A DNA stretch of 53,308 nt, taken from IMG/VR virus record IMGVR_UViG_3300005836_000021, positions 1 through 53,308 of that record, one strand, 5' to 3'. Source of the stretch: a virus. The notes beneath the pieces were generated by a model. The model saw nothing but the letters and a program-made list of their open reading frames with translations. It searched no databases and was not told where the DNA came from. The position numbers and the translations under genes were made by a program. Below are positions 39,318 to 53,308 of the stretch, piece after piece (position 1 is the first letter of the stretch; every line of letters starts with the position of its first letter).

Positions 39318-39689
39318 TCAGCCGCGGACCTTGATCCCAACGGCAAAGAGGTCGGCTGCGCCCAACACCGGGTCCGCGCCACCCCACACCAGATCCGCCC
39401 CGCGCACCTCGGCGGCGAAGTCGATCACGACCGCCTCGAAGTCGACGGGTGCCACGCTGCCGCTGTTGTCGAGCGGGGCGTAGTTGATGGCCTTGGCCGT
39501 ACCGCTGCCGTCCGTGTTGGCGTCGTCATACGGCACGTACTTGCCGCCGATGGTGAGCACGCCCAGCACCTGGCCAGGCTTGAGCAGTGTGGCCGCGGGC
39601 ACCGTGATAGTGACGGTGTCCCGGCTGATGGTGCCGTCCAGCTCCGTGAGGATGAACTCCCCGGTGTACTTCCCTTCGCTAAGGGCCAT
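39318..39689 (-). CDS. Head decoration protein (gpD-like)
   Basis: 123 aa, located between the protease and the capsid gene. Confidence 0.6.
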   Translation of the reverse strand: MALSEGKYTGEFILTELDGTISRDTVTITVPAATLLKPGQVLGVLTIGGKYVPYDDANTDGSGTAKAINYAPLDNSGSVAPVDFEAVVIDFAAEVRGADLVWGGADPVLGAADLFAVGIKVRG

Positions 39690-39700
39690 ACGTTTTCTCC

Positions 39701-40924
39701 TTAATGCTGCTGGTTACGCAGCCGATAAATCGCCTGTACGTCGATGGCCGGTGCCGCCCGCCGGGGGGCCCCGCCGTCCGGTCCCAGCCCGGCATTCACA
39801 ACCACTGCCGCGTCAACCTGGGCCGTTACTTCCGCCACCACAGCCTTCGCCTCGTCCACGCCCACTCCCGCCGCAACCAACCGAGCGGCCAGCTTGGGCT
39901 GATTGTACCGTTCGCCCAGAGCCGTGATGGTGCTGCATCGCAGCGCCTCCGCAGCCCGCTTGTCGCGTTCCACCTGTACCGCATGGGCAGCCTGTGCCTC
40001 GGTGGGCTTGATACCAACCAGGGCAGCAGTGAAAGCCACGTCAAGGCCCGCGCCTGCACACAGGGCCAGCACCTGCTCTGCCGACGCCTGCGCCTGAACC
40101 TGCGGCAGCACAGCCAAGGCTTCCGGAGCGTCTTCCACCTCTGCAATCGGCAGAGGGGTTTCCGGCGGGGGCGGCACAGGCGCCGGAGGTGGCTCCGGAG
40201 TCACACAAGCCACAGGGTCTTCAGCCAGGGGCGCCCCGGGGGTTTCCCGCGGGGCCAGCAAGGCATCGACCCGCGCCTTGAACTGTTCGGGCACCTTGAG
40301 GCCCAAGGTGGCGAACACCCTGGGGTCCAGACTGGCATTGGCTTGTGCGCCCTGCACCACCTCGTCGGCGAACCCGTTGGCCACGGCCTCGTCAGCGGTC
40401 ATCCAGGTTTCGGCATCCATCAAGGCGATCAGCTCCTTGTGTGCCAGCTTCGACTTCTGCCGGTAGGTGGCCACGATGGTATCACGGAAGGTGTCCAGGG
40501 TGTCGGCGGCCTTGCGCATTTCATCGGCGTTGCCCATGGCCATCGACCAGGGGTTGTGCACCATGATGATCGCGTTGTCCGCCACCTGCACCGGGGCGCC
40601 TGCCACCATAACCAAGGTGGCAGCGCTGGCCGCCATTCCGTCAACCAACACCTGCACCGTGCGGCCCTTGGCCTGTTGGTCGCGCAGCAGGTTATTGATC
40701 GCCATGGCCGCGGTCACGTCCCCGCCGGGGCTGTTGATACGCACCTTGATGTTCCGCACCTCGGCAGGCAGCGCCGACAGGTCCTCCGCAAACTGCTTCG
40801 CGGTCACCACACCCGGGCCCCCACCCATGTACTCGTCGAGGAAGTCGCCGATGAAGTCGAACAGCAGCACCTCCGCGGTGGGCTCGCCTGCCAGGTTCTT
40901 GATCGAATACCACGGCCTCATCAC
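39701..40924 (-). CDS. ClpP/S49-type prohead protease fused to a scaffold-like C-terminus (gpC-like)
   Basis: INSPGGDVTAAMAI...VDGMAASAATLV...IMVHNPW is the serine protease core. The C-terminal half is Ala/Pro-rich. Confidence 0.8.
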   Translation of the reverse strand: MMRPWYSIKNLAGEPTAEVLLFDFIGDFLDEYMGGGPGVVTAKQFAEDLSALPAEVRNIKVRINSPGGDVTAAMAINNLLRDQQAKGRTVQVLVDGMAASAATLVMVAGAPVQVADNAIIMVHNPWSMAMGNADEMRKAADTLDTFRDTIVATYRQKSKLAHKELIALMDAETWMTADEAVANGFADEVVQGAQANASLDPRVFATLGLKVPEQFKARVDALLAPRETPGAPLAEDPVACVTPEPPPAPVPPPPETPLPIAEVEDAPEALAVLPQVQAQASAEQVLALCAGAGLDVAFTAALVGIKPTEAQAAHAVQVERDKRAAEALRCSTITALGERYNQPKLAARLVAAGVGVDEAKAVVAEVTAQVDAAVVVNAGLGPDGGAPRRAAPAIDVQAIYRLRNQQH

Positions 40925-42459
40925 TCGCCTCCTGGCCCAGCCGGGGCAGGGGCAGGCGCCGCGCCCGCCACCTTTCCGCCCGGGGCAAACCTACCGTCGG
41001 AATCGTACTTGATGCCCAGGGCGTCCGCCCTCTGGGCGTCCACCTTTTGCTGGGCATCGATCAGCTCAGCGTCCTCGCCCTGCTCAGCCACCACGTCGGT
41101 GCGGCTGGTCAAACCACTACGGATGGCCGCATTGGCCGCCTGCACGTCTTGCACTGGGTGGATGTATGCCCACCCCTGAGGCATCCACTTTGCTGCCTGC
41201 CATGCGTCTGGGTTGGTCAGGTAGTCGGGCCCAAAGGGCAGGGCGCCGTCAAGGTACGCCCGGTCCATCCAGGCGGCCCACACCGGGCGGCACAACTGGA
41301 AGGCCACGGTCTCGTGCTGCTCTGCCATCACGTACCGCCGGAACTCGTGCAGGATCACACGCATGACCCGATCGTTCAACCCCGACATGTCGCCGGTGAG
41401 CACCTCGTAGGGCACCCCCGCAGCCGCGCACGCACTGCGCAACTGGGACTTCATGTACTCCACATAGCCCGTCTGCATGTCGGGCGGGTCGCTGAACGTA
41501 ACCTTCTCGCCTGCGTTCAGTTCCTGGAAGATGCCAGGCTGCAACCCCAACGTTGGGCGGTCCCCAGTGCCCTGGTTCCCTGCAATACCCTCTTGCCCCA
41601 GGATTGGCACCTCGCCCAGCACGTCAGTAGTGGGGTGCTCCAAAAAGGCCACAAACATGGCCGACAACTGCTGGCGCAGCAAGGTGGCGTCGTCGAACTT
41701 ATCCAGTTCCCGCAACCGGATCATAGCCTGCGTGAGGTGCGGCACGCCCCGCAACTGGCCGGCGCGCAGCGGCTTGAATACGTGCAGGATCTGCTCCGCG
41801 GGAATGCGCTTGACCACCCCCGGGTTCCAGTCGTTGATTTCCCCTGGCCGCTGGTCGTAAAAGTAGTACGCCACCCTTCGGCCAATGGCGTCCAGCTCGA
41901 TGCCGCCTTTGTAGTAGTTTCCATTGGGCGCAATGCCTGCCCAGTTCAACGGGCACATCTCTGGCTCCAGCACCTGCAACTGAAGCGACACGGCCAAGTT
42001 GTCCTTGGGCAACCGGGGGCGCAGTCGCACGAACACCTCACCAGCCTCCAACCAGCAGCGCACGGCCTGGGCCTGCTGGCCATACCACCCCTGGGTCCCG
42101 TCAGCGTCGCTGTGGTTGGCCCACGCAGCGAACAGGGCCTGGGCCTTCTCACGGAACGCAGGGTCGGGTGCCTGGCTGAGGGGCTTGATGCCGGTGCCCA
42201 CGATGTTGGTCACCAGCTTTGTGATAGCGCCCGACGCAAACCCATTGTTGCGCACGGCCTCACGGCTGCGGCGCCGCATGGCGTCGAGGTCGAACAGGAT
42301 CTGGTTCGGGGTTACGGTGGGGGCTCGCCAGCCCGCGGTGCGCCTGCCGTGGCTGCCAACCTCGTAGGTACTGGGACCCCCGATGATGTTCTTTGCCTTG
42401 CGGGTGGCCCCGCCACGGTGGCGCGGCTTGGCCTTGGTTGGAACAGGTGCAGTGGCCAT
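40921..42459 (-). CDS. Portal protein (lambda gpB family)
   Basis: 512 aa, located between the gpW-like gene and the protease. 4-nt overlap with the protease gene. Confidence 0.8.
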   Translation of the reverse strand: MATAPVPTKAKPRHRGGATRKAKNIIGGPSTYEVGSHGRRTAGWRAPTVTPNQILFDLDAMRRRSREAVRNNGFASGAITKLVTNIVGTGIKPLSQAPDPAFREKAQALFAAWANHSDADGTQGWYGQQAQAVRCWLEAGEVFVRLRPRLPKDNLAVSLQLQVLEPEMCPLNWAGIAPNGNYYKGGIELDAIGRRVAYYFYDQRPGEINDWNPGVVKRIPAEQILHVFKPLRAGQLRGVPHLTQAMIRLRELDKFDDATLLRQQLSAMFVAFLEHPTTDVLGEVPILGQEGIAGNQGTGDRPTLGLQPGIFQELNAGEKVTFSDPPDMQTGYVEYMKSQLRSACAAAGVPYEVLTGDMSGLNDRVMRVILHEFRRYVMAEQHETVAFQLCRPVWAAWMDRAYLDGALPFGPDYLTNPDAWQAAKWMPQGWAYIHPVQDVQAANAAIRSGLTSRTDVVAEQGEDAELIDAQQKVDAQRADALGIKYDSDGRFAPGGKVAGAAPAPAPAGPGGE

Positions 42460-42668
42460 CAGAACCCCTTGGTGGCAAAGCCCAGGGTCTGCTTCCTGTG
42501 CCCTACCGCTGCACGCAGTTGGGACGAAATGAACTCCTCCGCCTGCATCAACTGCGTGATGGACCTGTACGTGACCGATCGGTCAGCAAACTGAACGGTC
42601 TGTTCACCACGGGCGATGGCCAGGCGCACGCGGTCAAGGTCATCTTGCGTGTACGTGGGGTCAGCCAT
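42459..42668 (-). CDS. gpW-like head-tail joining protein (69 aa)
   Basis: Supported by its size, its position immediately upstream of the portal (1-nt overlap), and the sequence DLDRVRLAIARGEQTVQFADRSVTYRS. Confidence 0.6.
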   Translation of the reverse strand: MADPTYTQDDLDRVRLAIARGEQTVQFADRSVTYRSITQLMQAEEFISSQLRAAVGHRKQTLGFATKGF

Positions 42669-42674
42669 ACCGTA

Positions 42675-43433
42675 TTATCGCATATCGGCACCGAATTTGC
42701 AAGCAGAAACTAGGCCCCTTTCTTCCTGGGCCCACAGGCCCGCAAGCCCTTGCACCCCCTTGGTTGCCTTCATACAGATATTTGGATGGCCGAAAATCCG
42801 CATCCGGAGCGCAGACTTTACGTGCACAACCCGCGTCACTGCGGGGTCAAACTGGTCCCAGCAGGTGTCCTCGCAGTTCCACACCAGACAAGGCACCCCC
42901 ACCACGCGGGCGCCCTCGGGGCTGGCCAGCATGCAACCGAGGCTTGCCTGGTTGTAACCCCCATACACCCGGCGCCAAGGGGCTGCGGCAGGCGTGTCGT
43001 GCAGGAACTGGTCATCAACCTCAGCCCACCGCTGCATGAACCTCTTGCCCGCCACGGTGGCACGCACCGCCACGACACCCCCGTTCAACGGAAACCGGGC
43101 TGCCTTGCGTGCCGTGAACGCCACGTCGAAGGGTATTTCCCACAGGGGGTCAAGGGGCCCCGTGACGAAGGTGTCGGCGTCAACCAGCAGGACCGGGGCA
43201 CCCTCGGGGGCGGCCAGCACCGCGTCACGCCACAGGCGCAGCTTGTGCCAGTTGGCTGCGTGGCTCTCGCTGCCGGTGGCGGCCCGCACGGTGGTGGGCG
43301 GCACGGCCTGGACCCGTACGTCCCACCCTGGGTTATGCCGCCGGGCCGTGTGCTCGAGCACGGCAGCCATGCGCTGGAACTCGGTGCCCCCACCCGTGCC
43401 CGTGAACCACACCGACACCAGGCGAGGAGTCAC
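42675..43433 (-). CDS. GT-A-fold glycosyltransferase-like protein (DxD)
   Basis: GTG start in a GTGA overlap with the upstream stop. LVSVWFTGTGG...PVLLVDADTFV contains the DxD motif. Confidence 0.5.
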   Translation of the reverse strand: MTPRLVSVWFTGTGGGTEFQRMAAVLEHTARRHNPGWDVRVQAVPPTTVRAATGSESHAANWHKLRLWRDAVLAAPEGAPVLLVDADTFVTGPLDPLWEIPFDVAFTARKAARFPLNGGVVAVRATVAGKRFMQRWAEVDDQFLHDTPAAAPWRRVYGGYNQASLGCMLASPEGARVVGVPCLVWNCEDTCWDQFDPAVTRVVHVKSALRMRIFGHPNICMKATKGVQGLAGLWAQEERGLVSACKFGADMR

Positions 43434-44023
43434 AGGGTTATGCGGCGCCGGGGCACCACCTCGGTTCTTCGAATTTTCAGGCAGGGGCAGTCTTTGGCCC
43501 TGGGCGCATTTGCCGGCGGGGCGTCTCCGTTCGCCCGGCGCCAGTGGTACACGTACAGGCCCTCGTGCACGTACACCTTGTAACCCAGCTTCGCCAGCGC
43601 GAAGTGCATTCCATGGTCCACGCAGTACATGCCGTCCACGAACCCACCAGCGGCCAGCCAAGCCCGCTGAGAGATCACCATTACCACGCCCGCGATCCCT
43701 GAGGCCGCGGTCACGTCCAGCAAGGTTCTGACCTTCAGCTTTTCCTTGCCACGCTGCCGGTGGTACGCCATGTCGTGATTGTCTGGGCTGGGGTTACTCC
43801 ACTGCCAGGTCTGCCACCCGCGGCTGGCGATGGCCGTTATGATTCCCGCGTCGGGCACCTTGGCCACGGCCTCCTGGATTTGCTTGTACCATTCGCGAGT
43901 GGTCCAAATGGCGTCATGGTCAAGGAACACCGCCCAGTCGTCCTCTCCCAGCAGCCCCATGGCCTCGTTATAGGCGCGGCCCAGGTTCATGTCGGGGGCA
44001 AACGGCATCATCGTGTAGATCAC
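43430..44023 (-). CDS. GT2-like glycosyltransferase (197 aa)
   Basis: DWAVFLDHDAIW is DxD-type and sits in a GT-A-like context. Confidence 0.5.
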   Translation of the reverse strand: MIYTMMPFAPDMNLGRAYNEAMGLLGEDDWAVFLDHDAIWTTREWYKQIQEAVAKVPDAGIITAIASRGWQTWQWSNPSPDNHDMAYHRQRGKEKLKVRTLLDVTAASGIAGVVMVISQRAWLAAGGFVDGMYCVDHGMHFALAKLGYKVYVHEGLYVYHWRRANGDAPPANAPRAKDCPCLKIRRTEVVPRRRITL

Positions 44024-44562
44024 TTCGTGGCCTCCACCCGAAAGTCACGGCCCATGGCGTACGTGTGGTATTGCTGCGGCAGGGCTTGCACCCGCGCCCA
44101 GGGGGCCACGTGGTGCAGAAGGGCACACAGGGTGTCAGGGGTGTACCCCCACCGGTGCATATACCCAGGGTCCCGGTGTGCTGGGTCTCCGTAGATGGGC
44201 CACATGGTGAGCCGCATTGGATCGTCCACCGCGGCAGGCTGCAAGCTGGCAAAGGTTTCCATCTGCCGCGGGGCCAGAGCCGCCATGGCCTTGACCGCGT
44301 GCGCTAGGTTTGGCTGCTCGAGCACCAGCACCCCACCCGGGCGCAGCACCGAATACACCTCAGCCAGCAGGGGGCCTGCATCCCACAGCCAGAAATGCTC
44401 AATGCCGTGGATCAATTCGATCAGATCCCACGGCTCTGCATGCACCGCAGCGGGTAGCGGTGGCACGGTGGCCAGTATGTCAGGCTTGTGCTCTGGGTTC
44501 TGGTCCAGGCGCACAAAGCCCACGGGCCTGGTGGGCCCCGCGCACAACAGCAGCTTACGCAT
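44020..44562 (-). CDS. Class I SAM-dependent methyltransferase (180 aa)
   Basis: KLLLCAGPT...VRLD and LRPGGVLVLEQPN match the Methyltransf_11-like pattern. Confidence 0.5.
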   Translation of the reverse strand: MRKLLLCAGPTRPVGFVRLDQNPEHKPDILATVPPLPAAVHAEPWDLIELIHGIEHFWLWDAGPLLAEVYSVLRPGGVLVLEQPNLAHAVKAMAALAPRQMETFASLQPAAVDDPMRLTMWPIYGDPAHRDPGYMHRWGYTPDTLCALLHHVAPWARVQALPQQYHTYAMGRDFRVEATK

Positions 44563-45247
44563 GCGGCACCCTCGCCCAGTGCTCGTTCTTGAACAGGTTC
44601 ACGTCGTACGGGGCCACCTCAATGCGGTGCCGCTCCAGCAGGGGCGTGATGGCCGCCTGGTCGAAGATGGAAAACGTGTTCACGGTGCGCCACCAGTCGT
44701 CGAGAAACATATGCACCCGGGGCACGTTGGGCAGCAACCACACCCCGCCCGCCCACAGCGGGCAATGTCCCAGGTCAGCCTCGCGTGAGAAGTGGTTGCG
44801 CTCTGCGATCAGCGTTCCTTCGTCGTACCGTGCGGACAGGTACGGGCTTGACCCACGGGCCAGGTGCCCCAGGATATAGTCGTATTCCTCTGCCACCGTT
44901 TTGCGGTCTGGGTGGGGCACCAACACCGCGCGTTCCCTTCCGGCCAGGTTGGCCCACGTGGCCAGGAACTCCAGGTCGTTGAGTTGTAGACATGCGTCCA
45001 CCCAGGCCAGCCACTTGTGGCCCTGTACCGCACGCAGCCGGTGGATCTGACATTTATAGTATTTCGCAGCCAAGCGGGGGTTGAGCGCTGGGTGCTGAGT
45101 GGCGATCACATCCCACCCCGAGGCCTTGACCCCAGGTTGGTCAGTGTAACAGTACGTGGCTGCCCGCACACGCTTGCGCCTGGGCAGCGGCAGCACGGGG
45201 TCCAGGCCCCCAAAGGAGGCCGTTACAAGGGCAACCTGTGGAACCAT
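44555..45247 (-). CDS. DUF616-like putative glycosyltransferase (230 aa; alternative start at 45289)
   Basis: VALVTASFGG...NPRLAAKYYKCQIH...WLAWVDACL resembles the DUF616 pattern. Confidence 0.5.
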   Translation of the reverse strand: MVPQVALVTASFGGLDPVLPLPRRKRVRAATYCYTDQPGVKASGWDVIATQHPALNPRLAAKYYKCQIHRLRAVQGHKWLAWVDACLQLNDLEFLATWANLAGRERAVLVPHPDRKTVAEEYDYILGHLARGSSPYLSARYDEGTLIAERNHFSREADLGHCPLWAGGVWLLPNVPRVHMFLDDWWRTVNTFSIFDQAAITPLLERHRIEVAPYDVNLFKNEHWARVPHA

Positions 45248-45249
45248 GG

Positions 45250-45807
45250 TCAGCCCAGGTCTTGATAGATCTTGGGGTGTGTCAGGCAAAATCGGAGCAT
45301 GGTATCAGGGTCAGCCGCGTACCCCGGCAACCCAAAGTCATATCCTTGAGCCCCGTAGGCTTGTGCCACCAGGCGCGAGCAGATGGGCACCTTGTCGCCG
45401 GCGCCCAACGCGCGGGCCACCACCTTGCCCCCGAACAGTTTGCTGTCGACGAGCTGCTCTGCGATGGCGACGTAACTGTACGCTTCGCCCACCCTCTTTT
45501 CCGCCGTTGCCACAATGGCGTCCAGGGCCTCGAGCGGCACGTTGACCGGGCGGAAGGCAAACACCGAGTCCTTGCTGTGGCTGGAGCGCAGGGGCACCCG
45601 CTGCACGTGGCGCATGGCCTCCACGATCGTGGCGTCCCAGTATGCATCGCCAAGGGGTGGGGCACAGGCCACCACGATGGCCGCGTGGTTCACGCTGGGC
45701 GCGGTCTCTCCAGGGCTGCGTTCTCCCCACCGGATCAGCCTTCCCAGCAGTGCGGTGCTGGCCGTGAACAGAATGTCCCCAGGTATCAGGTACCGGTCGC
45801 CCATCAC
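45250..45807 (-). CDS. Permuted papain-fold (YiiX/C92-like) peptidase/amidase
   Basis: LIPGDILF...NHAAIVV...ICSRLVAQAY has the His-then-Cys order typical of permuted NlpC/P60 relatives. Confidence 0.45.
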   Translation of the reverse strand: MMGDRYLIPGDILFTASTALLGRLIRWGERSPGETAPSVNHAAIVVACAPPLGDAYWDATIVEAMRHVQRVPLRSSHSKDSVFAFRPVNVPLEALDAIVATAEKRVGEAYSYVAIAEQLVDSKLFGGKVVARALGAGDKVPICSRLVAQAYGAQGYDFGLPGYAADPDTMLRFCLTHPKIYQDLG

Positions 45808-46106
45808 TTCCTCCTGTCGATCAGGCCCGCGGCGCCCAGCTTGTCGAGCACCGATGCGGCCACGGTTGCGGGCAGGGCCTCGAGCCGGGTCTCCAACTTG
45901 CCCAGCGTTACCTGTACCCCCACCAGTTCCTTTCCCATTTCGTCCAACCTGCGGTTGGCTGCCACGGCCTTGCGGTCTGCCTCATGTGCAGTAGCCCGCG
46001 TTTCGTGCAGGTATAAGAACCTGGAGAACACCCACGCCAGCACGGCGGCTACTGTGGTGCCCACAGCCACCGCGGCCTCCCAGCCCCAGTCCCAGTTCTT
46101 GAACAT
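45804..46106 (-). CDS. N-terminally anchored membrane protein with a coiled coil (100 aa)
   Basis: MFKNWDWGWEAAVAVGTTVAAVLAWVFSRFLYL followed by heptad-like sequence. TGATG junction. Confidence 0.45.
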   Translation of the reverse strand: MFKNWDWGWEAAVAVGTTVAAVLAWVFSRFLYLHETRATAHEADRKAVAANRRLDEMGKELVGVQVTLGKLETRLEALPATVAASVLDKLGAAGLIDRRK

Positions 46107-46549
46107 CAGATGACCTGAGCAGGCGCGGCGGGCCTGCGGTTGCGCATCTTGACCACCTCGTCGCGCAGGCCGTCGATCTGTGCGCCCAACGTGACCATAA
46201 ACCCGTCCACCTTGGCGGGCAGGGTGTGGCTGAGAACCTCCACTGCTTCGGCCAACTCTTGTACCTGTGTGGCACGTGCCGCATCGTTGGTGTTCAAGCT
46301 GGCCACCTGACCCCACACCTTGTTCACGTCGCCACGCAGGTCTGCCAGTTGCTGGTATGCCTGCAATGGCGACACGTGCTCCAACTTGGTGGCCAGTGCC
46401 CCCACCTCCCTGGTATGGGTGGCGCTGCTGTCATCCAGGCGCCTCGTGAACAGGTGGTAGAACAGGCCAAGGGCGGCAAACTGTACCGCGTTGATGAGGA
46501 TCAAAAGTGCAAACACCACGGTCAGCGCGGTTTGACTTTCCAAGTGCAT
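46106..46549 (-). CDS. N-terminally anchored membrane protein with a long coiled coil (147 aa; i-spanin-like?)
   Basis: ALTVVFALLILINAVQFAALGLFYHLF followed by coiled-coil sequence. Confidence 0.45.
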   Translation of the reverse strand: MHLESQTALTVVFALLILINAVQFAALGLFYHLFTRRLDDSSATHTREVGALATKLEHVSPLQAYQQLADLRGDVNKVWGQVASLNTNDAARATQVQELAEAVEVLSHTLPAKVDGFMVTLGAQIDGLRDEVVKMRNRRPAAPAQVI

Positions 46550-46554
46550 GGCCC

Positions 46555-47013
46555 TCAGTCGGCGTAAAGACGGCGCACACCCAGCACACGTCCAAGGGCG
46601 TACGGAGTCAGGGTTACGGTGGCGGGGTCGTTGTGGTTGCCACCAAGAACCAGGATGTGTGAATTGTCCTGGCTGAAGAAGAAGCCCACGTGGCCAGGTG
46701 CGGCCACCACCCCAGGGCCTGGTTGCGGCTCCGCCCCCCGACTGAGCACTACCACGTCCCAGCCTTGCTCCGCCTGCTCGAGCGGCACGGGCGTTCCGAT
46801 CTCGAGCCAGGCGCGGGCATGCTGCGGGCCCCGGGGTACAGGTACACCCAGCAAGCCCGCAACGAACCCCACGAACCCACCAGCCCACGGGATCTCATCT
46901 GCGGGGTGCCACTCGCGACACCGGTCGCGTGCGTTCCACATCTGCAAGATCCCGGCATCGGTAGGGTACACCCCCAGGAACCGACGCGCTATGTCAAGGG
47001 CCGTGGTTTCCAT
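46555..47013 (-). CDS. TIGR02594-like (CHAP/NlpC-P60-related) cell-wall hydrolase homolog
   Basis: DEIPWAGGFV...GHVGFFFSQDNSHILVLGGNHND...VLGVRRL. No Cys is present where the nucleophile is expected. Confidence 0.55.
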   Translation of the reverse strand: METTALDIARRFLGVYPTDAGILQMWNARDRCREWHPADEIPWAGGFVGFVAGLLGVPVPRGPQHARAWLEIGTPVPLEQAEQGWDVVVLSRGAEPQPGPGVVAAPGHVGFFFSQDNSHILVLGGNHNDPATVTLTPYALGRVLGVRRLYAD

Positions 47014-47018
47014 GGTGG

Positions 47019-47378
47019 TCACTTTGCCGGGACATCCCCGCCGTGCACGTATGAGGCCAGGCCAACGCACACCGCAGTGGCCACGATCGTCGGCGCCTGA
47101 TGGAGGAAGTCCACCCCGCACAAGGCCGTAATCTGGTCACGCAGCAGCAGCCATCCCGACCCCAACACGCTCCACACACCGGTATGAGCCGCGGCCACCT
47201 TGCCGCCCTTGCCCTGCCTCAGTGCAAGGTACGCGGCAGCCAAGCCACCGGCCAAGGCAAACAGGCCCTCGGGGCTGAACAAGGCGGGGCATGCCTGAGT
47301 CACTTTGGCCACCACCACCGGTGCCACGGCCAGGGCCGCAGCACGAACCCAACGCCACACCTTCTGCCAGTCCATCAT
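47019..47378 (-). CDS. Multi-TM holin-like membrane protein (119 aa)
   Basis: It has three or four hydrophobic segments and sits directly upstream of the hydrolase homolog. Confidence 0.45.
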   Translation of the reverse strand: MMDWQKVWRWVRAAALAVAPVVVAKVTQACPALFSPEGLFALAGGLAAAYLALRQGKGGKVAAAHTGVWSVLGSGWLLLRDQITALCGVDFLHQAPTIVATAVCVGLASYVHGGDVPAK

Positions 47379-48079
47379 CAACCTCCCCAGCCGGCGCCCA
47401 CGCCTGCCGTGATCACGTTCGTTCTGTGGCCGTATGGGTTTCGTGCGAGGCCCAACACCGCCCGCACCGACAACACCACAGACCCGTTCCCTCGGGTCAG
47501 CACTTTGATCGACCCCTTGACGTGGGCCGTGGGAACCGGGCCCCACCCCGGGCGCTCGTCAGGGCCCAGGCCAATACGCAGGCGCCCGCCGTGGCCGCCC
47601 GCCTTTTCCCGGAACCACACCCCGCAGCTTGCCCACAGGGGTGCGCCTTCCCGCGGCTGCCTGCCGTCGGTTTCCAGCCTGCTGGCGAACCCCGCCTCGC
47701 AGTACCCCGCGGCATGCACCTTGGTACTGGGACGCCAGTTGACACCCACCGACATCTCGATGGCGTCGAAGTCCTTGGCCGTGGTCAGCCGCACTTGGCT
47801 GTCGGGCAGGCCCGTGAGGTCAGCCTCGGCGAAAGCATTCAGCCGCTGCACCACCGGCCAGTCCACAGCCACCCGCACGAACGGACGCACGGGGCCACGG
47901 CCCGTGGTGCCCAGGGTTGTCTGGGTTCCGGCCAACATGGTCACCTCGGGCGCCGCTGCGTCCACAGCGGCCACCTGCCCAGCCCACCAGGCGCCCGCGT
48001 ACAGACCGGGGCCTGGTGCAGCGTGAGCGGTACCGCAGGCTAGGGCCGCAACCAGCAGCCAGGGCGCCAGCATCCTCAT
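47378..48079 (-). CDS. Secreted, beta-rich (outer-membrane-protein-like) protein (233 aa)
   Basis: Signal peptide MRMLAPWLLVAALACGTAHA followed by alternating hydrophobic/polar segments. Confidence 0.45.
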   Translation of the reverse strand: MRMLAPWLLVAALACGTAHAAPGPGLYAGAWWAGQVAAVDAAAPEVTMLAGTQTTLGTTGRGPVRPFVRVAVDWPVVQRLNAFAEADLTGLPDSQVRLTTAKDFDAIEMSVGVNWRPSTKVHAAGYCEAGFASRLETDGRQPREGAPLWASCGVWFREKAGGHGGRLRIGLGPDERPGWGPVPTAHVKGSIKVLTRGNGSVVLSVRAVLGLARNPYGHRTNVITAGVGAGWGG

Positions 48080-48540
48080 CCGATGTACATGACCCACTGG
48101 TCGCAGCCCAGGGCCGCGCCCTCCAGGCTGATGGCGCAAACCTCGAACGTGGCCGCACCCGCCGGCTCGTGGCAGTTCCAGTTCAGCCCCCTGCTCGAAA
48201 GCGACCCGTACGGGGCGCACTGGGCTCCGAAGCCTCCGGTTTGCCGTTGCTGCCACCGTGGAATGACCCCGCAATCGATAGGCTGGCCGCCCTGGTAGCA
48301 CGCGGTCGGGGTGCCCGTGATCTTGAAGTCGGTGCCTGCCTGCACGCCCGTGGTGACCCGGCCGCCCTGCGAACCTTCCGCGCGGACGATCACATAGATC
48401 GGCGCCGGTGTGGGGCTGGGGCTGGGCTCAATGACCGGGTCGGGCAGCACCGGGGTGGTGCTGGAACACGCTGTGTACAGGCACGCGATCACCAGGCCAG
48501 TGGCCAGGCTGCGCAGCATGCCATAAAGGAAACTCTTCAT
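48076..48540 (-). CDS. Putative lipoprotein (154 aa)
   Basis: MKSFLYGMLRSLATGLVIAC carries a lipobox-like VIAC. AAGGAG lies upstream. ATGA overlap with the next gene. Confidence 0.5.
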   Translation of the reverse strand: MKSFLYGMLRSLATGLVIACLYTACSSTTPVLPDPVIEPSPSPTPAPIYVIVRAEGSQGGRVTTGVQAGTDFKITGTPTACYQGGQPIDCGVIPRWQQRQTGGFGAQCAPYGSLSSRGLNWNCHEPAGAATFEVCAISLEGAALGCDQWVMYIG

Positions 48541-48579
48541 TTGGTTTCAACTCCTTCGGGCGTGTAGCCCACATAACCC

Positions 48580-48588
48580 ATTGTACCA
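48580..48588 (-). promoter_or_regulatory. Extended -10 element TGgTACAAT on the minus strand
   Basis: The plus strand reads attgtacca. It lies in the 50-nt gap between the terL stop and the lipoprotein gene. No good -35 element is present. Confidence 0.3.
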
Positions 48589-48590
48589 CA

Positions 48591-50471
48591 TCAGGCGTCT
48601 GGGTTCCAGTTTCTTGTGCGTGCCTGCCGCGGGGCGGGGGGCACCGCGGGGGCCGCAACGGGCACGGCAGCGTCATCGATCTTCTTGGCCAGGGCCGCGA
48701 AGTGTGCGGGGGTCGGGCAGATAACCCGATAGGCGGCCAGGGCCATACCCATGCAATCCAGCGACTCGTTTCGGTCATGCCCCGGGCGCACCGCCCACCG
48801 CTTGCTGGGTACGCCCAGCTTGTTGCGCTGCACCAGCAAGTGCTCGGCCGTCAGCTCGGTAAAGAACGCGTCGCCCACGGTCATCGGGAAGTGGATCACA
48901 CCCGGGCCCGCCGGTTCCTCAAGGCGCAACCGCGAGTAGATCAACCCCTTAACTTGTGACGCGTCAACCACGTACCGCAGCACATTGCCCTGGGCAGTGT
49001 TCAGGATCTTGCTGGCCGACACCAACTGCCCGTTTATACCGCCATCCTTGCCGATGCTGGCGTACACCCGGCGGCCCTGCCGCGGCACGATGGCCGCGTA
49101 CACCGAGGCCGTGCGGTGCCCCAGCGCATCAACCAGGGTGCACTGCACACGGGTGCCGCCTCCCTCCTCGCGCTCCCATAGTTGCAGCAGCAGTTCATCA
49201 AGCTCGCGCCACACGTCTGGCCTGCTGGGGTCTCCAAAGAACGGCGCCGGGCGCTCGAGCACCCAGCTTTCCTCGCCGGCGCCCCAGCCCATCACCAGCG
49301 CCTCGAGCCGGTCATCCTGCGTGTCCACCCCGCAGGTCAACACCTTGCACCCCGCGGGCACGGGTTTGGGGTACACCACCCGTCGCATCAACAGGCTGGC
49401 GCTCTCGATCCTTTCGCTGGGCACCTCCCAACTTTCCCCGCGGGTCAGGTTCACCCAGCTTTGCAGGGTCTCGGGGCGCTTCTTGGCGGCCAGGAAGGCC
49501 GCAACCATTTCGCTCAACCGGGTCCAGGGCGATACGATGGCCCACACCTTATACCCGCGTACCCCCTCGAACGGTGCGGTGGGCACCCACTGGGCCGCCG
49601 CAAACATGGCGGCACGTTCGCTGTCCTCGATCCGCCCTCCGCAACCAGGCGCCGCACCCGCCGCAACCTCGTCGGGGGTCAGGCCCTCGTTGTGCTCAAG
49701 GTGGGCCGTGCTGGGGTCGCCAGCCTCCCACCGCACATGATGCCACCCTACCTCGAACGCCCTGCCACAGCGGGGGCACGGGGCCATCAGCACCCGCTTG
49801 TCGCTGCGGGCGTACCAGTCCTCAATCCGGCTGGCCCCCTTGATGGTGGGGGTGCTGGTCAACACGATCTTGCGGCGCCTGTACGCGGCGGTGCGCTGCA
49901 CCACCAGCGCCAGCGGGTCTCCCTCAGGGGTGGCCGCCGGCCAGCGGTCTACCTCGTCGCACCACACATACCGCACTGGCCTGCTGCTCAGGCCCGCGGT
50001 GCTGTTGGCGCCGGCCAGGGTCAAAGGCAGCCCGTTGATGCGCTTGTGCAGCACCGAGTTATCGGTGGTCTTGGCCTTGTGCGTGCCCACGTTCAAAGCG
50101 GGGCAAGACTTGAGCGCGCCGGCCAGGCGGTCGGTAGACACGGCGCCGGCCAGTTCTAGGGTGGGCAGCACCAGCATGCCAGGCCCGGGGTCGACCCCGT
50201 AGGCGTAGAGCAATGTTCCAAACAGGCCCTCGGTCTTGCCTATCTGGCTGCTGAACAGCAGCACCAGATATTCCACCTCGGGGTCCACGAAGTCGTTCAG
50301 TGGTGCACGCAGGTATGGGGTGCGGCCCGTGCGCCACGGCCCAGGGAAGGGGCTGGGGTAGTCACGGCCCACCACCCGGTTCCCGTCGAGCCAGTCGGCC
50401 ACGTTGAGCCGCGGGGGCGGGGTGTAGGTGCGCGCACTGGCCCGCAGGATGCGGGCCCGGGTCGCGTTCAC
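48591..50471 (-). CDS. terL: Terminase large subunit (lambda GpA family)
   Basis: 626 aa. LLFSSQIGKTEGL is a P-loop. It lies downstream of a Nu1-like gene with a 4-nt overlap. Confidence 0.85.
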   Translation of the reverse strand: MNATRARILRASARTYTPPPRLNVADWLDGNRVVGRDYPSPFPGPWRTGRTPYLRAPLNDFVDPEVEYLVLLFSSQIGKTEGLFGTLLYAYGVDPGPGMLVLPTLELAGAVSTDRLAGALKSCPALNVGTHKAKTTDNSVLHKRINGLPLTLAGANSTAGLSSRPVRYVWCDEVDRWPAATPEGDPLALVVQRTAAYRRRKIVLTSTPTIKGASRIEDWYARSDKRVLMAPCPRCGRAFEVGWHHVRWEAGDPSTAHLEHNEGLTPDEVAAGAAPGCGGRIEDSERAAMFAAAQWVPTAPFEGVRGYKVWAIVSPWTRLSEMVAAFLAAKKRPETLQSWVNLTRGESWEVPSERIESASLLMRRVVYPKPVPAGCKVLTCGVDTQDDRLEALVMGWGAGEESWVLERPAPFFGDPSRPDVWRELDELLLQLWEREEGGGTRVQCTLVDALGHRTASVYAAIVPRQGRRVYASIGKDGGINGQLVSASKILNTAQGNVLRYVVDASQVKGLIYSRLRLEEPAGPGVIHFPMTVGDAFFTELTAEHLLVQRNKLGVPSKRWAVRPGHDRNESLDCMGMALAAYRVICPTPAHFAALAKKIDDAAVPVAAPAVPPAPRQARTRNWNPDA

Positions 50472-50998
50472 TCTTCCTCGTCGGGGGTGTCGGCCAGCAC
50501 GTCAGCAGCGGCCAGCAGGCGCAACGTGACCCCGGTCAGGGCGTCACGGCACAGGGCCTCCAGCTCCATTTCCTTGCCTGGTACCACAGTGCCCTGCTGC
50601 ACCGCGATGCCAGGGATCGCCATGACCCCCTCGCGCACGGCCATGGCCTCCTGTGTGCGGTCGGCCTCCACCTGGTCAGCGCGCACCACCTGGCCCTGCC
50701 GCTCGGCCAGGTCCAATTCCTTCAGCTTGGCCTCGGCCGCGGTCTTGGCGGCACGGGCGCCCTCGGGGTCCGTGCGTGCCCGCAAGGCTTGCATCTCACG
50801 CTCGTGTTTGGCCAGCACCCACTGCACTCCCAGGGCGACGTTCACCATGGCCCGCCGGTCTTCCCTGTCCACAGGCATGCCCGCCTTGAGCCAGTTGGTG
50901 ACGGTGTTCTGGTGCACCCCGCACAGGTCGCCGAAGCGCCCAGCAGTCACTAAGATGGGGGCGTTTGCCCTGGGCGCATCGGGTTCGTTCTTGGGCAT
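50468..50998 (-). CDS. terS: Terminase small subunit (Nu1-like HTH)
   Basis: FGDLCGVHQNTVTNWLKAGMPV is an HTH, followed by a coiled coil and an acidic tail. Confidence 0.7.
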   Translation of the reverse strand: MPKNEPDAPRANAPILVTAGRFGDLCGVHQNTVTNWLKAGMPVDREDRRAMVNVALGVQWVLAKHEREMQALRARTDPEGARAAKTAAEAKLKELDLAERQGQVVRADQVEADRTQEAMAVREGVMAIPGIAVQQGTVVPGKEMELEALCRDALTGVTLRLLAAADVLADTPDEEE

Positions 50999-51215
50999 GG
51001 GCTAAGCCTCAGAGCCACAACGAGTTACAGCAGCACGTCTTCTGGTCGAGGACAGCGCCTCGTTCACCCGCTTTGCGTGGGGAGGTCCTGGGACCCCGGA
51101 CCTGTCGACACAATAACTTACAAAGGAACGTTGTGCTTGCGCGCAGCAAGGGGAGGAGGTATGTTCCGACGCAAAAACAGCAGGGGGTATGCCCCCTCCC
51201 TCCTCCTTATGTGTC

Positions 51216-51291
51216 AATGACTTAGTAGTGCATGCCCTGTGTGTGCGTGCTGTGTGTACAGGGCATAGCCCATGCATGTGCTTATGTGTCA
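51216..51291. repeat. Two copies of CTTATGTGTCA (51216-51226 and 51281-51291) flanking the inverted repeat ATGCCCTGT / ACAGGGCAT (51232-51267)
   Basis: Read directly in the lower-GC region upstream of terS. These are candidate terminase or regulator binding sites. Confidence 0.4.
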
Positions 51292-51305
51292 TATACATAC
51301 GCAGG

Positions 51306-51317
51306 GCAGTATACTGC
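51306..51317. promoter_or_regulatory. Perfect 12-bp palindrome GCAGTATACTGC (candidate operator)
   Basis: Read directly. It overlaps the predicted start region of the leftward promoter. Confidence 0.4.
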
Positions 51318-51325
51318 ATAAGATG

Positions 51326-51354
51326 AGTGTAGCACAGGTCGCTACCATATGCAA
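51326..51354 (-). promoter_or_regulatory. Leftward sigma70-like promoter TTGCAT-N17-(TGc)TACACT
   Basis: The minus strand reads TTGCATatggtagcgacctgTGcTACACT. This is the same architecture as the rightward promoter. Confidence 0.5.
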
Positions 51355-51537
51355 GCCTATTGTGCACAGGGCAGGCCAGGGCGTGTGTGTTAGGGGCGTG
51401 TAGGAGGGTTTAATACGTTTAGGCGGTTGTATTCAAGCGCACGGCCGTCACCACTGTGTGTGGTCAGGGTCGTAGTAGTTTCGTGCGCGAGCTTGAACCA
51501 GGGGGCAGATAAACATTAAACCCCTCTAGCAACCCCC

Positions 51538-51567
51538 TTGCATCAACCCACTAGCCTGTGCTAATAT
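51538..51567 (+). promoter_or_regulatory. Rightward sigma70-like promoter TTGCAT-N18-(TGc)TAATAT
   Basis: TTGCATcaacccactagcctgTGcTAATAT ends about 38 nt upstream of ATG 51606, which is preceded by AAGGGAGG. Confidence 0.5.
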
Positions 51568-51605
51568 GCCACAGGTGGCACTAAGGCCACACAAAGGGAG
51601 GCTTC

Positions 51606-51965
51606 ATGAAGGTTAGGGTCACACCAGAATTCAAGGCTGCGTACCACGCCCGCCCTGCGTCGTTGACCAGGATGTTACTGGCCAGGTGCGCTCAGGTTAC
51701 AAACGACGATTTGGTGGGCTTGTACTTTGCCCCCAGTTTCGCCTTCGTTGACAGCCCCGTGCACATGGCGCGAATCCAGGCATTTGCGCAGGGCCTGCAC
51801 TTCGAGGGCCCTTTGGTGGTGCCCGACGAGGCCTCGGCCCTGCGCGAAGAGGTACGTGCGGCACGCACCGCGCGGCACGCGAAGGCACGTGCGGATGAAA
51901 TCGCGCGGCTCAAGGGCGAGCTGGCCCTGCTGCGCGCGGCACAAGCCCAAAGTCCCAATGAATAA
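51606..51965 (+). CDS. Hypothetical protein (119 aa) with a C-terminal coiled coil
   Basis: Track ORF with a strong SD. Confidence 0.55.
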   Translation: MKVRVTPEFKAAYHARPASLTRMLLARCAQVTNDDLVGLYFAPSFAFVDSPVHMARIQAFAQGLHFEGPLVVPDEASALREEVRAARTARHAKARADEIARLKGELALLRAAQAQSPNE

Positions 51966-51986: not shown

Positions 51987-52190
51987 ATTTCTGCGTTGCA
52001 CCCTCGTGAATTTGCTTGATCGCTGGGCAATCGGGTGCAAGCAAAAAGTGGCTTCCTCGTAACCCACTTGAAATCAGTCCTTTGCCAAATATTGGCTTCC
52101 TGGAGCGCGTTTCTGCAACATTCGGGGGTTGGCGCCGGTGCGCCTGCCCCCAGAAACGGCCTGTTCCGCGAGTTTATTTTGGAACAAGGT

Positions 52191-52211
52191 TGGCACGCAG
52201 ACTGCATATGG
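52191..52211 (+). promoter_or_regulatory. Sigma54-type -24/-12 promoter motif, copy 6
   Basis: TGGCACGCAGACTGCATATGG. Coordinates were set from the frame of ORF 52035..53000. The gene start at 52254 has AAGGAGG upstream. Confidence 0.5.
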
Positions 52212-52253
52212 GTAAGGTCGTGCGGGCTGCGATACTTGCCCCAAGGAGGCGAA

Positions 52254-53000
52254 ATGACGAAGGCACTGGCGTTGACCCTGGCCCTGCTGGCCTGCACGGC
52301 CCAGGCGGGCCCCGTGGCTGTGGTACTGGCCGGCCAAAGCAACATGGTGGGCATTGCACCGCTGTTGCCGGAAGATCGCCTGCCTAGCGCCGCACCAATT
52401 GGTGTGGTGAACAGCGTTGGGCGACTTCAAGACTCCGCAGAGCCGTACTCCAAGAAACCCGGCGCGGGCGTCTCCCTGGCCCGCTCCTTCGCGCTGAAGA
52501 TCCTCGCAGACGACCCGACAGTGGATCAGGTCTGGCTCATTGAGTGCGCGGTGGGAGGCACGGGAAGCGAGCTGTGGGTGCCGGGTGCCAGACTGTTCGA
52601 TGCCTGCATCACGCGGGCCCGCGGCATACCAGCCATTTTCAGGGTGCCGGTGGTTGCGGTGCTGTGGCACCAAGGCGAAAGCGACTGCTCGCCTCGCCTA
52701 TCCAAGACCTACGCTGTGCGCTTGGCGGCCATCATTGCGGGCTTCCGTGCTGCGTTTCCGGGGGCCGCGTTTGTGGGCGGGGAACTGGAGAACCCGTACC
52801 GTTGGGGCGATTACACAGCCAGCCAGTGGCACTACATCGTGGACGCCACCCGTGCCCAAGCGGACGCGTTTGTGCCCGCCGCGGACCTGGCCCTGCTGCC
52901 CCGCAGCCAGCATCACTTCGACCGCAACAGCCTGCGCACGCTGGGAGAGCGGTACGCGGAGGCGCTGGAATCGATACGGCCTGCACTCGGCGACTGGTAG
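52254..53000 (+). CDS. SASA/SGNH-type carbohydrate O-acetylesterase (sialate O-acetylesterase-like) with a signal or lipoprotein peptide
   Basis: MTKALALTLALLAC is the signal segment. VVLAGQSNMVG, ECAVGGTGSELW and AVLWHQGESD are the SASA-domain motifs. Confidence 0.7.
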   Translation: MTKALALTLALLACTAQAGPVAVVLAGQSNMVGIAPLLPEDRLPSAAPIGVVNSVGRLQDSAEPYSKKPGAGVSLARSFALKILADDPTVDQVWLIECAVGGTGSELWVPGARLFDACITRARGIPAIFRVPVVAVLWHQGESDCSPRLSKTYAVRLAAIIAGFRAAFPGAAFVGGELENPYRWGDYTASQWHYIVDATRAQADAFVPAADLALLPRSQHHFDRNSLRTLGERYAEALESIRPALGDW

Positions 53001-53030: not shown

Positions 53031-53308
53031 ATGAGCGACACAACCCGTACCCAGCAACCCCTGACCGAGGACGAGGGCATACGCTGTGCCCAGTGCGGCA
53101 CCCTGGTGCACCGTGGGGAAATAGTGCAGGTGCGGCGCCTGGGGCTGCGGGACGTGTGCCGCCCCTGTGGGCAGCGCGCCGTGGCCGCGTGCCCGAAGGC
53201 CCAAGAGCCTCCTGCCGTACGGCGCAGGAGGCTCAAAAACCTGCGCGCGCGGGCACGGTATGACGCGCTGCGCAGCCTGGGCCTCAAGCGCACGCCCTAC
53301 GGGTGGGA
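53031..53308 (+). CDS. Small zinc-ribbon protein (93 aa); the ORF runs off the window end and finishes at 122-124 across the circular junction
   Basis: MSDTTRTQQPLTEDEGIRCAQCG...CRPCGQ carries two CxxC pairs, followed by a basic tail RRRRLKNLRARARY. Confidence 0.55.
   Translation, partial: MSDTTRTQQPLTEDEGIRCAQCGTLVHRGEIVQVRRLGLRDVCRPCGQRAVAACPKAQEPPAVRRRRLKNLRARARYDALRSLGLKRTPYGW
53189..53308. repeat. Terminal overlap, right copy (identical to 1-120)
   Basis: Read directly. This is either an assembly circularisation overlap or a short direct terminal repeat. Confidence 0.95.

Follow-up and report, generated by a model that had tools for sequence, protein, structure and literature searches.

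Why does the packaging and head module of a lambda-type phage carry 11 additional genes between the large terminase gene (terL) and the gene for the gpW-like head-tail adaptor? This question is raised by the IMG/VR virus record IMGVR_UViG_3300005836_000021, which we analyzed over its whole stretch of 53,308 bases (referred to herein as the window). The 11 open reading frames (ORFs), designated i01 to i11 from terL towards gpW, occupy positions 42675-48540 on the minus strand. A preliminary description of the window regarded them as an accessory island inserted into the module. We consider it fairly probable that the terL/gpW junction is instead a long-standing cargo slot in the late operon, bordered by putative promoters and occupied by a variable envelope cassette (cassette A, i01-i07) and a conserved glycosylation cassette (cassette B, i08-i11). 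The slot would then be a standing feature of the packaging/head operon in this lineage, rather than the scar of a single insertion.

A GC3 frame analysis showed unbroken minus-strand coding from the small terminase gene (terS) to the portal gene, in the order terS, terL, the 11 ORFs, gpW, and portal. terS (50468-50998, minus strand; phrog_57, 1.8e-18) is the first gene of the minus-strand late arm, and its product is 49-54% identical to those of the relatives L021, L022, L024, and L074. The upstream border of the slot is terL (48591-50471, minus strand), which encodes a GpA-type large terminase (TerL) with PF05876 (GpA_ATPase) and PF20454 (GpA_nuclease). The downstream border is the gpW-like gene (42459-42668, minus strand; phrog_2545 [Ad1], 5.1e-18), 53-59% identical in L021, L022, L024, and L025, and this is followed by the lambda-family portal gene (40921-42459, minus strand; PF05136 [Phage_portal_2], 1.1e-104). 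The head module also contains a ClpP-like protease (9e-30), a decoration protein (HDPD, 8e-21), the major capsid protein (Phage_cap_E, 1e-88), and a Minor_tail_Z match. All components stand in the lambda order except for the 11 intervening genes. These matches and reading frames bore out both the lambda-like module of the preliminary description and its division by 11 genes. The slot genes are tightly packed: neighbors overlap by 1-8 nt or stand 2-6 nt apart, and the sole larger gap (50 nt) separates terL from i01. An Rfam scan of 42000-51700 gave no match. PADLOC detected no defense system in the slot cargo; its only match was that of i05 to JetC, of a coiled-coil type (E = 0.003).

The synteny of the region was compared in a sample anchored on TerL, which comprised homologues 57-67% identical on long contigs and provided eight loci with a readable terL-portal interval. 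In L021, L022, L025, L075, and L076, 4.8-9.6 kb lay between terL and gpW. Measured between alignment ends in relatives with 60-67% TerL identity, the terL-portal spacing ran from 0.6-0.7 kb (L024 and L026, with 0.67 kb in L024) to 9.6 kb (L022), with intermediate values of 5.1 kb in L021 and 8.4 kb in L025; the same site spanned approximately 5.5 kb in L075 and 9 kb in L076. L024, a phage with 63% TerL identity, has a single 96-amino-acid (aa) helix-turn-helix (HTH)-like ORF between terL and gpW, and L026 and L077 have one short ORF at this site. The slot genes are, thus, absent at the same position in a similar phage, and the content differs in L021, L022, L025, L075, and L076. Most of the central slot genes had no BLAST or phmmer match between loci. 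The description of the region as accessory was confirmed in this respect: it is variable, with mostly non-homologous content.

The two ends of the slot behaved differently from its center. An i11 homologue (44-55% identity) was located directly upstream of gpW in L021, L022, L025, L075, and L076. i08-i09-i10-i11 were collinear in L025/L054, L028, L032, and L042 and partly in L074 (six loci). At the left end, i01-i02-i03 homologues (49-68% identity) were present in L074, a locus that was found through i02 and has a 62% identical TerL. The middle of the L074 slot, where i04-i07 stand in the window, contains an ORF with a transmembrane segment (TM) plus a coiled coil and a trypsin-like protease, followed by i08-i10. 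The middle of the L025 slot contains a 45-aa TM protein, an M15-like peptidase, and a trypsin-like protease, among others; the peptidase shows SxHxxGxAxD and HxH motifs of the M15 (VanY) type by eye and had no hidden Markov model (HMM) match.

Several further observations were made at these loci. The HTH-like small ORF recurs: it is the sole occupant in L024 (11908-12198), immediately precedes the i11 homologue in L021 (15302-15532) and L075 (6739-7041) with 49-56% identity, and has no copy in the window. A role in regulating the slot is possible. A Cys-rich secreted protein encoded outside the slot, at 6650-7108 (plus strand) of the window, is 39% identical (8e-25) to the in-slot ORF L022 16379-16735, a match that points to traffic of genes between the slot and the rest of these genomes. 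L074 carries an HNH endonuclease gene (632-961) between terS and terL that is absent from the window. L026 (3503-13695) and L077 (4588-13804) are on bacterial contigs and consist of an integrase, HTH genes, terL, a short ORF, and portal, with few other phage genes, together with a Prim-Pol/AAA primase in L077. These elements may be degraded prophages or satellite-like users of this TerL/portal type.

A second survey was anchored on the glycosyltransferase i11. Searching with a profile built from five i11 homologues gave 47 viral contigs, 29 of which were at least 38% identical, and in all 29 the homologue was within approximately 3.5 kb of a lambda-type portal gene. terL and portal were both visible in 20 loci; the i11 homologue was between them in 18 and directly after portal in two. 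In a distant clade, TerL and portal were 30-35% identical to those of the window (portal, 30-33%) and i11 was 41-50% identical, whereas the corresponding values in the close clade were 49-63% for portal and 38-55% for i11. These unequal ratios of i11 to portal identity indicate that the cassette was exchanged between head-module lineages while its location was kept. In L028, TerL is just 35% identical, yet i08-i11, gpW, and portal (63%) are retained. Loci of the distant clade that carry the glycosyltransferase also share a perfect 16-bp palindrome, TGTTCCACGTGGAACA, approximately 40 nt past the terL stop (L031 7304-7319; L033 1139-1154; L035-L037 9565-9580; L041 8372-8387; L044 2638-2653), which probably serves as a binding site for a protein, for example as an operator, at this same junction.

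The composition of the island was indistinguishable from that of its flanks. Its GC content was 65.5% and that of the structural genes was 65.4%. The correlation of relative synonymous codon usage (RSCU) between the island and structural genes was 0.978 (control blocks, 0.966-0.978), and its 4-mer correlation ranked 23 of 48 same-size windows. The comparison of GC content and codon usage that the preliminary description had proposed, thus, lent no support to an insertion, and we discarded a recent foreign origin of the island, of which GC content, codon usage, and 4-mers showed no sign.

The borders of the slot carry promoter-like elements. The preliminary description proposed that the island may have its own promoter, and the sequences it cited were exactly where it placed them in the 50-nt gap: an extended -10-like element, TGGTACAAT, at 48580-48588 (minus strand), 6 nt past the terL stop, and AAGGAG at 48551-48556 (minus strand), followed by the i01 ATG at 48540. 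We defined a -10-like element as a gene-strand hexamer matching TATAAT in at least five of six positions (background 0.17-0.7 per kb). Such a hexamer was located no more than 8 nt from the terL stop in the window, L022, L005, L025, and L074, with a chance of 0.003-0.014 per locus. It was TACAAT (preceded by TGG) in the window, TGGTATGAT in L022, and TATAAT in each of the other three. All five loci with a post-terL gap of 37-55 nt and a secreted first gene carried the hexamer, and the bases around it were not conserved. Small hairpins followed this first -10 element in four of the five loci, none of which was individually significant (z -0.2 to -1.9). At the other border, a promoter-like TTGCAA-17 nt-GATAAT at 42674-42702 (minus strand) was detected in a consensus scan; it overlaps the i11 stop, has TG before the -10, and its GATAAT ends 5 nt before the gpW ATG. 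A perfect TATAAT was present just before gpW in L022, L025, L027, L029, L030, and L042 (seven loci with GATAAT of the window), 2-11 nt before the start extrapolated from BLAST, or 5-15 nt when counted to the start codon read from the sequence. With this spacing, the gpW mRNA of several loci would be leaderless or almost so. Gene-overlap junctions (L021, L024, L028, L075, and L076) had neither hexamer. A promoter directly after terL is plausible on these motifs. We read both sets of hexamers as putative conserved promoters that bracket the slot; they may also act as short homology patches for cassette exchange.

Cassette A begins with i01 (48076-48540, minus strand), a predicted lipoprotein with a signal peptide and, by reading, a lipobox-like stretch (VIAC/YTAC), a Pro-rich linker, and a Cys-containing beta domain. 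Its homologues are the first gene after terL in L074 (49% identity), L022 (2.7e-6), and L005 (2.3e-4). i02 (47378-48079, minus strand) is a secreted all-beta protein with an N-terminal hydrophobic signal and four known homologues, of which the L074 copy is 68% identical and in the same position. Its AF2 model had 10 long beta strands at a pLDDT of 53 and gave no significant fold match; an outer-membrane barrel would be a guess from this model. i03 (47019-47378, minus strand) is a small Ala/Gly-rich membrane protein with hydrophobic segments and is 61% identical to an L074 protein in the same position. The preliminary description called it holin-like, which makes it at most a candidate holin: it matched no family, holins included, in Pfam, PHROG, or NCBIfam, and i01, i02, and i06 similarly had no family match in these three databases. 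i05 (46106-46549, minus strand; TM at residues 11-29) and i06 (45804-46106, minus strand; TM at residues 13-31) are each an N-terminal TM anchor followed by a coiled coil. The only matches of i05 were weak and of a coiled-coil type (IcmG/DotF and JetC), and the TM-plus-coiled-coil ORFs in the middle of the L022, L025, and L074 slots are non-homologous to i06. The preliminary names of lipoprotein for i01 and anchored coiled-coil proteins for i05 and i06 were appropriate, whereas that of secreted beta-rich protein for i02 agrees with its signal peptide and predicted strands but depends on a low-confidence model.

The remaining two genes of cassette A were previously described as a TIGR02594-like hydrolase homologue (i04) and a YiiX-like peptidase (i07). 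The homology of i04 (46555-47013, minus strand) to the TIGR02594/CHAP-like family is clear: it matched TIGR02594 at 1.2e-14, had 200 homologues at E <= 1e-10, and matched phrog_1259 (tail-lysozyme C-terminal region) at 4.8e-12. However, its TIGR02594 score of 54.7 bits was under the curated cut-off of 70.55, and the catalytic cysteine is lost. When up to 150 homologues were aligned, position 44 is Ala in i04 and the catalytic Cys in 132 of 138, and position 127 is His in i04 and Gln (of GGNQ) in 139 of 147; the conserved His is kept. In the best PDB match, position 44 was aligned with residue 30 of Tse1, and the chain of that entry also has Ala there. We take residue 30 to be the catalytic Cys of Tse1 and the matched entry to be the C30A mutant. 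Since both the Cys and the Gln of GGNQ are replaced, while the homologues in L024 and L032 retain the Cys, i04 is most likely a pseudo-enzyme. i07 (45250-45807, minus strand) is a cytoplasmic protein of the C92 (YaeF/YiiX)-like permuted papain fold, with neither a TM segment nor a signal peptide. It matched PF05708 at 1.6e-5 and phrog_1128 at 2.7e-9, and its His (NH) and Cys (ICS) motifs are common to a 35% identical homologue in L024. It is a candidate peptidase, its PF05708 score (25.4 bits) being just under the gathering score of 27.

Cassette B consists of a predicted methyltransferase and three predicted soluble GT-A glycosyltransferases. i08 (44555-45247, minus strand) had no HMM match, and the Pfam search, including PF04765, was empty even at E <= 1. 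However, its AF2 model (pLDDT 93.5, pTM 0.90) has a GT-A fold of the TOD1/MUCI70 (DUF616) type, as the preliminary description had suggested. The best viral structure matches were an Indivirus TOD1/MUCI70 protein (TM 0.83, rmsd 2.7 A) and a DUF616 protein (TM 0.77), and GT6 ABO transferases were matched in the PDB (TM 0.55-0.59). The i08 family is small (16 proteins). i09 (44020-44562, minus strand) resembles class I S-adenosylmethionine (SAM) methyltransferases, but this earlier assignment rests on a weak Methyltransf_23 match (1.9e-4) below the gathering score; homologues 58-66% identical stand between i08 and i10 in L025, L028, L032, L042, and L074. i10 (43430-44023, minus strand) is a GT2-type (GT-A) glycosyltransferase that matched phrog_14179 at 3e-13 and PF00535 at 3.4e-4 (21.0 bits; gathering score 23.3), with a DHD motif. 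Its homologues in L025, L028, L032, L042, L074, L075, L076, and the distant clade are 48-75% identical, and the only relatives in isolated phages, namely, phAPEC8-like and Cellulophaga phages, are 25% identical. i11 (42675-43433, minus strand), which adjoins gpW, is a GT-A glycosyltransferase of the Nucleotid_trans/GT8-like type that matched PF03407 at 8e-4 (19.9 bits; gathering score 22). Its DxD motif (D85-x-D87) is invariant among homologues, and isolated phages have no homologue. The proposal of two GT-A glycosyltransferases agrees with the PHROG match of i10 and the invariant DxD of i11; the Pfam matches of both are weak. A search of i07, i08, i09, and i11 against PDB sequences yielded nothing significant, the best match being a GT77 Skp1 galactosyltransferase (E = 0.15). 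Neither a signal peptide nor a TM anchor occurs in i07-i11, the single hydrophobic stretch of i10 being buried, and a flippase and a polyprenol-phosphate transferase are likewise missing.

We propose that the two cassettes differ in both function and inheritance. Cassette A, proximal to terL, would undergo fast turnover and encode envelope-directed proteins. It probably has transcription of its own, in the fashion of a moron, driven from the sigma-70-type -10 element immediately past terL. Its products probably remodel or guard the envelope, for example, in superinfection exclusion or as lysis accessories, and are probably not the main lysis system. Cassette B, proximal to gpW and conserved, should build a short methylated glycan on a cytoplasmic acceptor because a TM, a flippase, and a polyprenol-phosphate transferase are all missing. 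This acceptor would need to be accessible in the cytoplasm at a late stage of infection, during expression of the head genes. Cassette B would be inherited with gpW/portal and would have moved between distant lambda-type head modules while remaining at the same site. From the second -10-like element, at the gpW border, transcription into gpW and portal would start anew.

The reading of the preliminary description, in which a single and fairly recent horizontal insertion of a 6-kb moron split an ancestral terL-gpW-portal block, appears quite improbable to us. It draws on the short interval of L024, which has just the 96-aa ORF between terL and gpW, on the -10-like elements at both borders, and on an arrangement found in no isolated phage. 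However, the composition and codon usage of the island are those of its flanks, and its content changes piecewise rather than as one block: i08-i11 are collinear in six loci and i01-i03 are common to L074. Moreover, i11, often with i10, occupies this site in five of the seven other TerL-anchored relatives with a readable interval and in 29 glycosyltransferase-anchored contigs. A scattering of the island-bearing genomes with glycosyltransferase congruence inside the close clade would speak against a single insertion, and this pattern has been seen in part. The region is accessory and variable, as was claimed, but it is not a discrete recent or unique insertion. The preliminary description had itself held that the same gene order in close relatives, as an ancestral arrangement, would speak against an insertion, and the gpW-proximal half comes near to this, with i11 and often i10 conserved in place across the clade and beyond. 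The slot also has no convincing intrinsic terminator of its own on the minus strand of 42675-48590, where only a 5-bp stem inside i08 was detected. The preliminary description also placed lysis functions in the island, and we regard as unlikely a relocated lysis cassette, moved from before terS to after terL, with i03 as the holin, i04 as the endolysin, i05/i06 as spanin-like proteins, and a lipoprotein. The types of genes resemble a Gram-negative lysis set. In addition, the L025 slot has a 45-aa TM protein beside the M15 (VanY)-like peptidase plus a trypsin-like protease, L074 has its TM-plus-coiled-coil ORF and trypsin-like protease, and in L024 a Cys-bearing i04 homologue and the i07 homologue are upstream of terS, the classical lysis position. 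On the other hand, neither the Cys nucleophile nor the conserved Gln is retained in i04, no o-spanin-type small lipoprotein is located within, after, or adjoining i05 and i06, and i03 matches no holin family. Furthermore, a complete Amidase_2 protein, which is likely the real endolysin, is encoded far from the slot on the replication arm (9294-9872, plus strand; PF01510 8.3e-22; endolysin PHROGs down to 7e-26). Lysis functions in the island are, therefore, doubtful. Because i04 appears dead and Amidase_2 is encoded elsewhere, we favor an envelope-modifying, exclusion, or lysis-accessory role for cassette A over that of main lysis.

The acceptor of cassette B may be sought among virion proteins, which are the favored novel case, lipid-linked envelope precursors, and DNA, which is the least likely. 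That cassette B glycosylates virion (head) proteins in many uncultivated lambda-type phages is a possibility that we put forward tentatively. Soluble GT-A enzymes commonly act on lipid-linked intermediates. Cassette B may modify host surface polysaccharide precursors (lipopolysaccharide [LPS], exopolysaccharide [EPS], or capsule) at the cytoplasmic face, leading to a receptor change and superinfection exclusion in the manner of serotype-converting phages, although we consider this somewhat unlikely. The secreted SASA/CE6 esterase encoded at 52179-53000 suggests a polysaccharide receptor, and soil virome studies class such glycosyltransferases as host-directed auxiliary genes (PMC11924767). Nevertheless, the plus arm and the ten scanned minus-arm proteins include no integrase, a flippase, GtrA/B/C-type partner, or polyprenol-phosphate transferase is lacking, and this explanation does not account for the linkage to gpW/portal in head modules that are only approximately 30% identical. 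Glycosylation of the phage DNA before packaging is very improbable. The cassette adjoins the packaging genes, and the genome encodes a MazZ-like dNTP diphosphohydrolase and a DUF4406 protein. However, no hydroxymethylase or base-modifying partner was found, the methyltransferase i09 matches no DNA-methyltransferase family, and the GT-A, DUF616, GT2, and GT8 types are typical of glycan building. In addition, described phages keep their DNA-modification genes with replication genes (for example, LuckyBarnes, PMC6588365).

A comparison of the capsid proteins of glycosyltransferase-bearing genomes with those of one glycosyltransferase-less genome showed collinearity and gave no prediction of a glycan target. 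Separately, the HDPD decoration protein of L024 (15281-15940) has an insertion domain of approximately 95 aa that is absent from those of the window (39318-39689) and L075 (10775-11161). L024 is the only glycosyltransferase-less phage relative, and we regard this single case as a lead rather than evidence.

Several points weigh against the promoter-bordered, two-cassette slot that we prefer. The TerL-anchored sample is small, with eight readable loci, and a survey anchored on a glycosyltransferase inevitably favors loci in which the enzyme is encoded. The extended -10 shows no enrichment, with TGNTANAAT occurring once in the window versus 0.83 expected, and its significance comes only from the comparison with relatives. 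A consistent -35 is lacking, and L021, L075, and L076 bear an island yet have no element. The suggestion of an island promoter, thus, gains from the -10-like hexamer at the terL stop of five loci, but not from a -35 or from the motif by itself. The predicted promoter function rests on a hexamer, and simple read-through of a single late operon would explain tight packing without terminators just as well. Confidence in the i02 model is low. Every glycosyltransferase and methyltransferase HMM match was under the curated threshold, and the predicted catalysis comes from fold and motifs.

The ends of the window are an exact 120-bp direct repeat (1-120 and 53189-53308), and an ORF spans the junction. 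Based on this repeat, the window represents a phage genome that is complete and was assembled as a circle of 53,188 bp. The GC content of the whole window is approximately 66%. The plus-strand arm extends from approximately 51663 across the end of the window to 24924 and carries replication and nucleotide genes, including those for a family A DNA polymerase, SNF2 helicase, primase-polymerase, Amidase_2, and the SASA esterase. The minus-strand arm runs from 50998 down to 24948 and carries the packaging, head, and tail genes. A search for integrases detected none on the plus arm and none among ten minus-arm proteins scanned. Isolated phages are only distantly related. A DNA search of a 10-kb region against isolated phages returned only a 61-bp match at the level of chance, and the best TerL identity to isolated phages was 38%. 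Exact-sequence look-ups of TerL and portal gave no record, and a scan of GTDB genomes with TerL revealed no close relative (best match 39%, in an Acidobacteriota metagenome-assembled genome [MAG]). A Vicinamibacteria MAG carries a 64% identical TerL inside a degraded integrated element. These two MAGs are the nearest genomic hints to a host; the hosts are probably Gram-negative soil bacteria and may be Acidobacteriota-like.

Other features of the genome were noted outside the slot. At 2458-4862 (plus strand) of the early arm, the gene of a PLP-dependent enzyme (PALP, 1.3e-12) precedes that of a radical SAM enzyme with a B12-binding domain (Radical_SAM 4.6e-14; B12-binding 7e-5). At 18532-19295 (plus strand), a DUF4406 protein precedes a dATP/dGTP diphosphohydrolase N-terminal domain (PF18909, 6e-21; MazZ-like), and no PurZ was seen; the domains of this pair hint at manipulation of the nucleotide pool. 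The SASA/CE6 carbohydrate acetylesterase (52179-53000, plus strand; PF03629, 9e-27) has a signal peptide, lies beside the divergent control region, and may act on an acetylated polysaccharide receptor. A tail-fiber-like protein (29059-29991, minus strand) has a long C-terminal His/Asp-rich repeat of HxD units, and its N-terminal MAWT.PRTW motif is also found in the 29993-30280 and 25420-26034 proteins. Its gene is followed by that of a radical SAM protein (27827-29062, minus strand; PF04055, 8.8e-9), the C terminus of which is likewise His/Asp-rich, and then by that of a 412-aa protein with a weak methyltransferase domain (26592-27830, minus strand). This cluster may serve in the post-translational modification of the fiber protein. 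An assignment of 11205-11621 as a SleB-like hydrolase was dropped when Pfam gave no support.

The slot occurs in a large group of uncultivated soil phages with hundreds of TerL homologues and no isolated relatives, and one site shows two behaviors: envelope cargo turns over rapidly, whereas the glycosylation cassette stays linked to the head genes despite exchange between lineages. In soil viromes, glycosyltransferases are routinely counted as auxiliary genes of host metabolism (PMC11924767). If cassette B modifies the virion or the receptor, this interpretation would be wrong for this glycosyltransferase family. If it glycosylates the virion, a trait so far shown mainly for mycobacteriophages would be widespread and linked to the head module in soil phages, and many of the "carbon-cycling" glycosyltransferase auxiliary genes of soil viromes would be structural-modification genes. 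The annotation of the island is also corrected in that its hydrolase is a predicted catalytically dead homologue and the endolysin is encoded elsewhere.

Among known systems, the slot may be compared with the morons of lambda-type phages, a concept of Hendrix and colleagues, which include the bor lipoprotein and the lom outer-membrane protein. In both, extra genes stand within a late structural operon and are directly preceded by a promoter-like element, both include a lipoprotein and a secreted beta protein, and both are missing in some close relatives. However, the slot has no bor/lom homology, no terminator, and no foreign composition, and it is a multi-gene unit shared with a conserved cassette. 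Prophage expression of the slot is doubtful because the genome appears to lack an integrase. T4-type promoter-stem-loop (PeSL) cassettes reportedly flank shuffled accessory genes, as Arbiol et al. are said to have described in 2010. The promoter-like elements at both borders of a swappable block and the hairpins after the -10 in four of five loci are similar to these, whereas the hairpins of the slot are not individually significant, no repeat beyond the hexamer region is shared, and the phage group is different. Prophage glycosyltransferases that modify the host surface, such as GtrABC in O-antigen conversion and TarP of S. aureus, are likewise phage-borne GT-A enzymes that alter a glycan, as predicted for the slot. 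In contrast, the slot has no GtrA/GtrC membrane partners, and its linkage is to head genes and not to regions of attachment or lysogeny; a lysogeny module was not detected, the integrase scan having covered the plus arm and ten minus-arm proteins.

Two further systems are close in location or gene content. The old/tin hotspot of P2 adjoins the portal gene and belongs to the hypervariable hotspots of phages (PMC9122126; bioRxiv 10.1101/2024.10.15.618418). The slot similarly occupies a fixed site between core genes on the portal side of the head module, and its cargo differs among close relatives; unlike old/tin-type hotspots, it shows no defense-system matches, conserves i11 with or without i10, and lies inside terL-gpW-portal. 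PMC11600133 and PMC11256854 (citing Freeman et al. 2023) describe virion-glycosylation cassettes of mycobacteriophages in cluster O (Corndog type), where an O-methyltransferase is followed by three tandem glycosyltransferases, and in cluster F1 (Che8). The O-methyltransferase plus three glycosyltransferases modify capsid and tail-tube proteins. This set and cassette B both combine one methyltransferase with three soluble glycosyltransferases in a siphovirus-type genome with no export machinery. The differences are that the order in the slot is glycosyltransferase-methyltransferase-glycosyltransferase-glycosyltransferase, i11 has no homologue in isolated phages, the cassette is fixed beside gpW/portal, and the hosts are probably Gram-negative soil bacteria; the parallel is one of gene content only. 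Accessory hotspots, morons, and glycosyltransferase cassettes of phages are already known, and what is new is a cargo slot inside the otherwise invariant terL-gpW-portal block.

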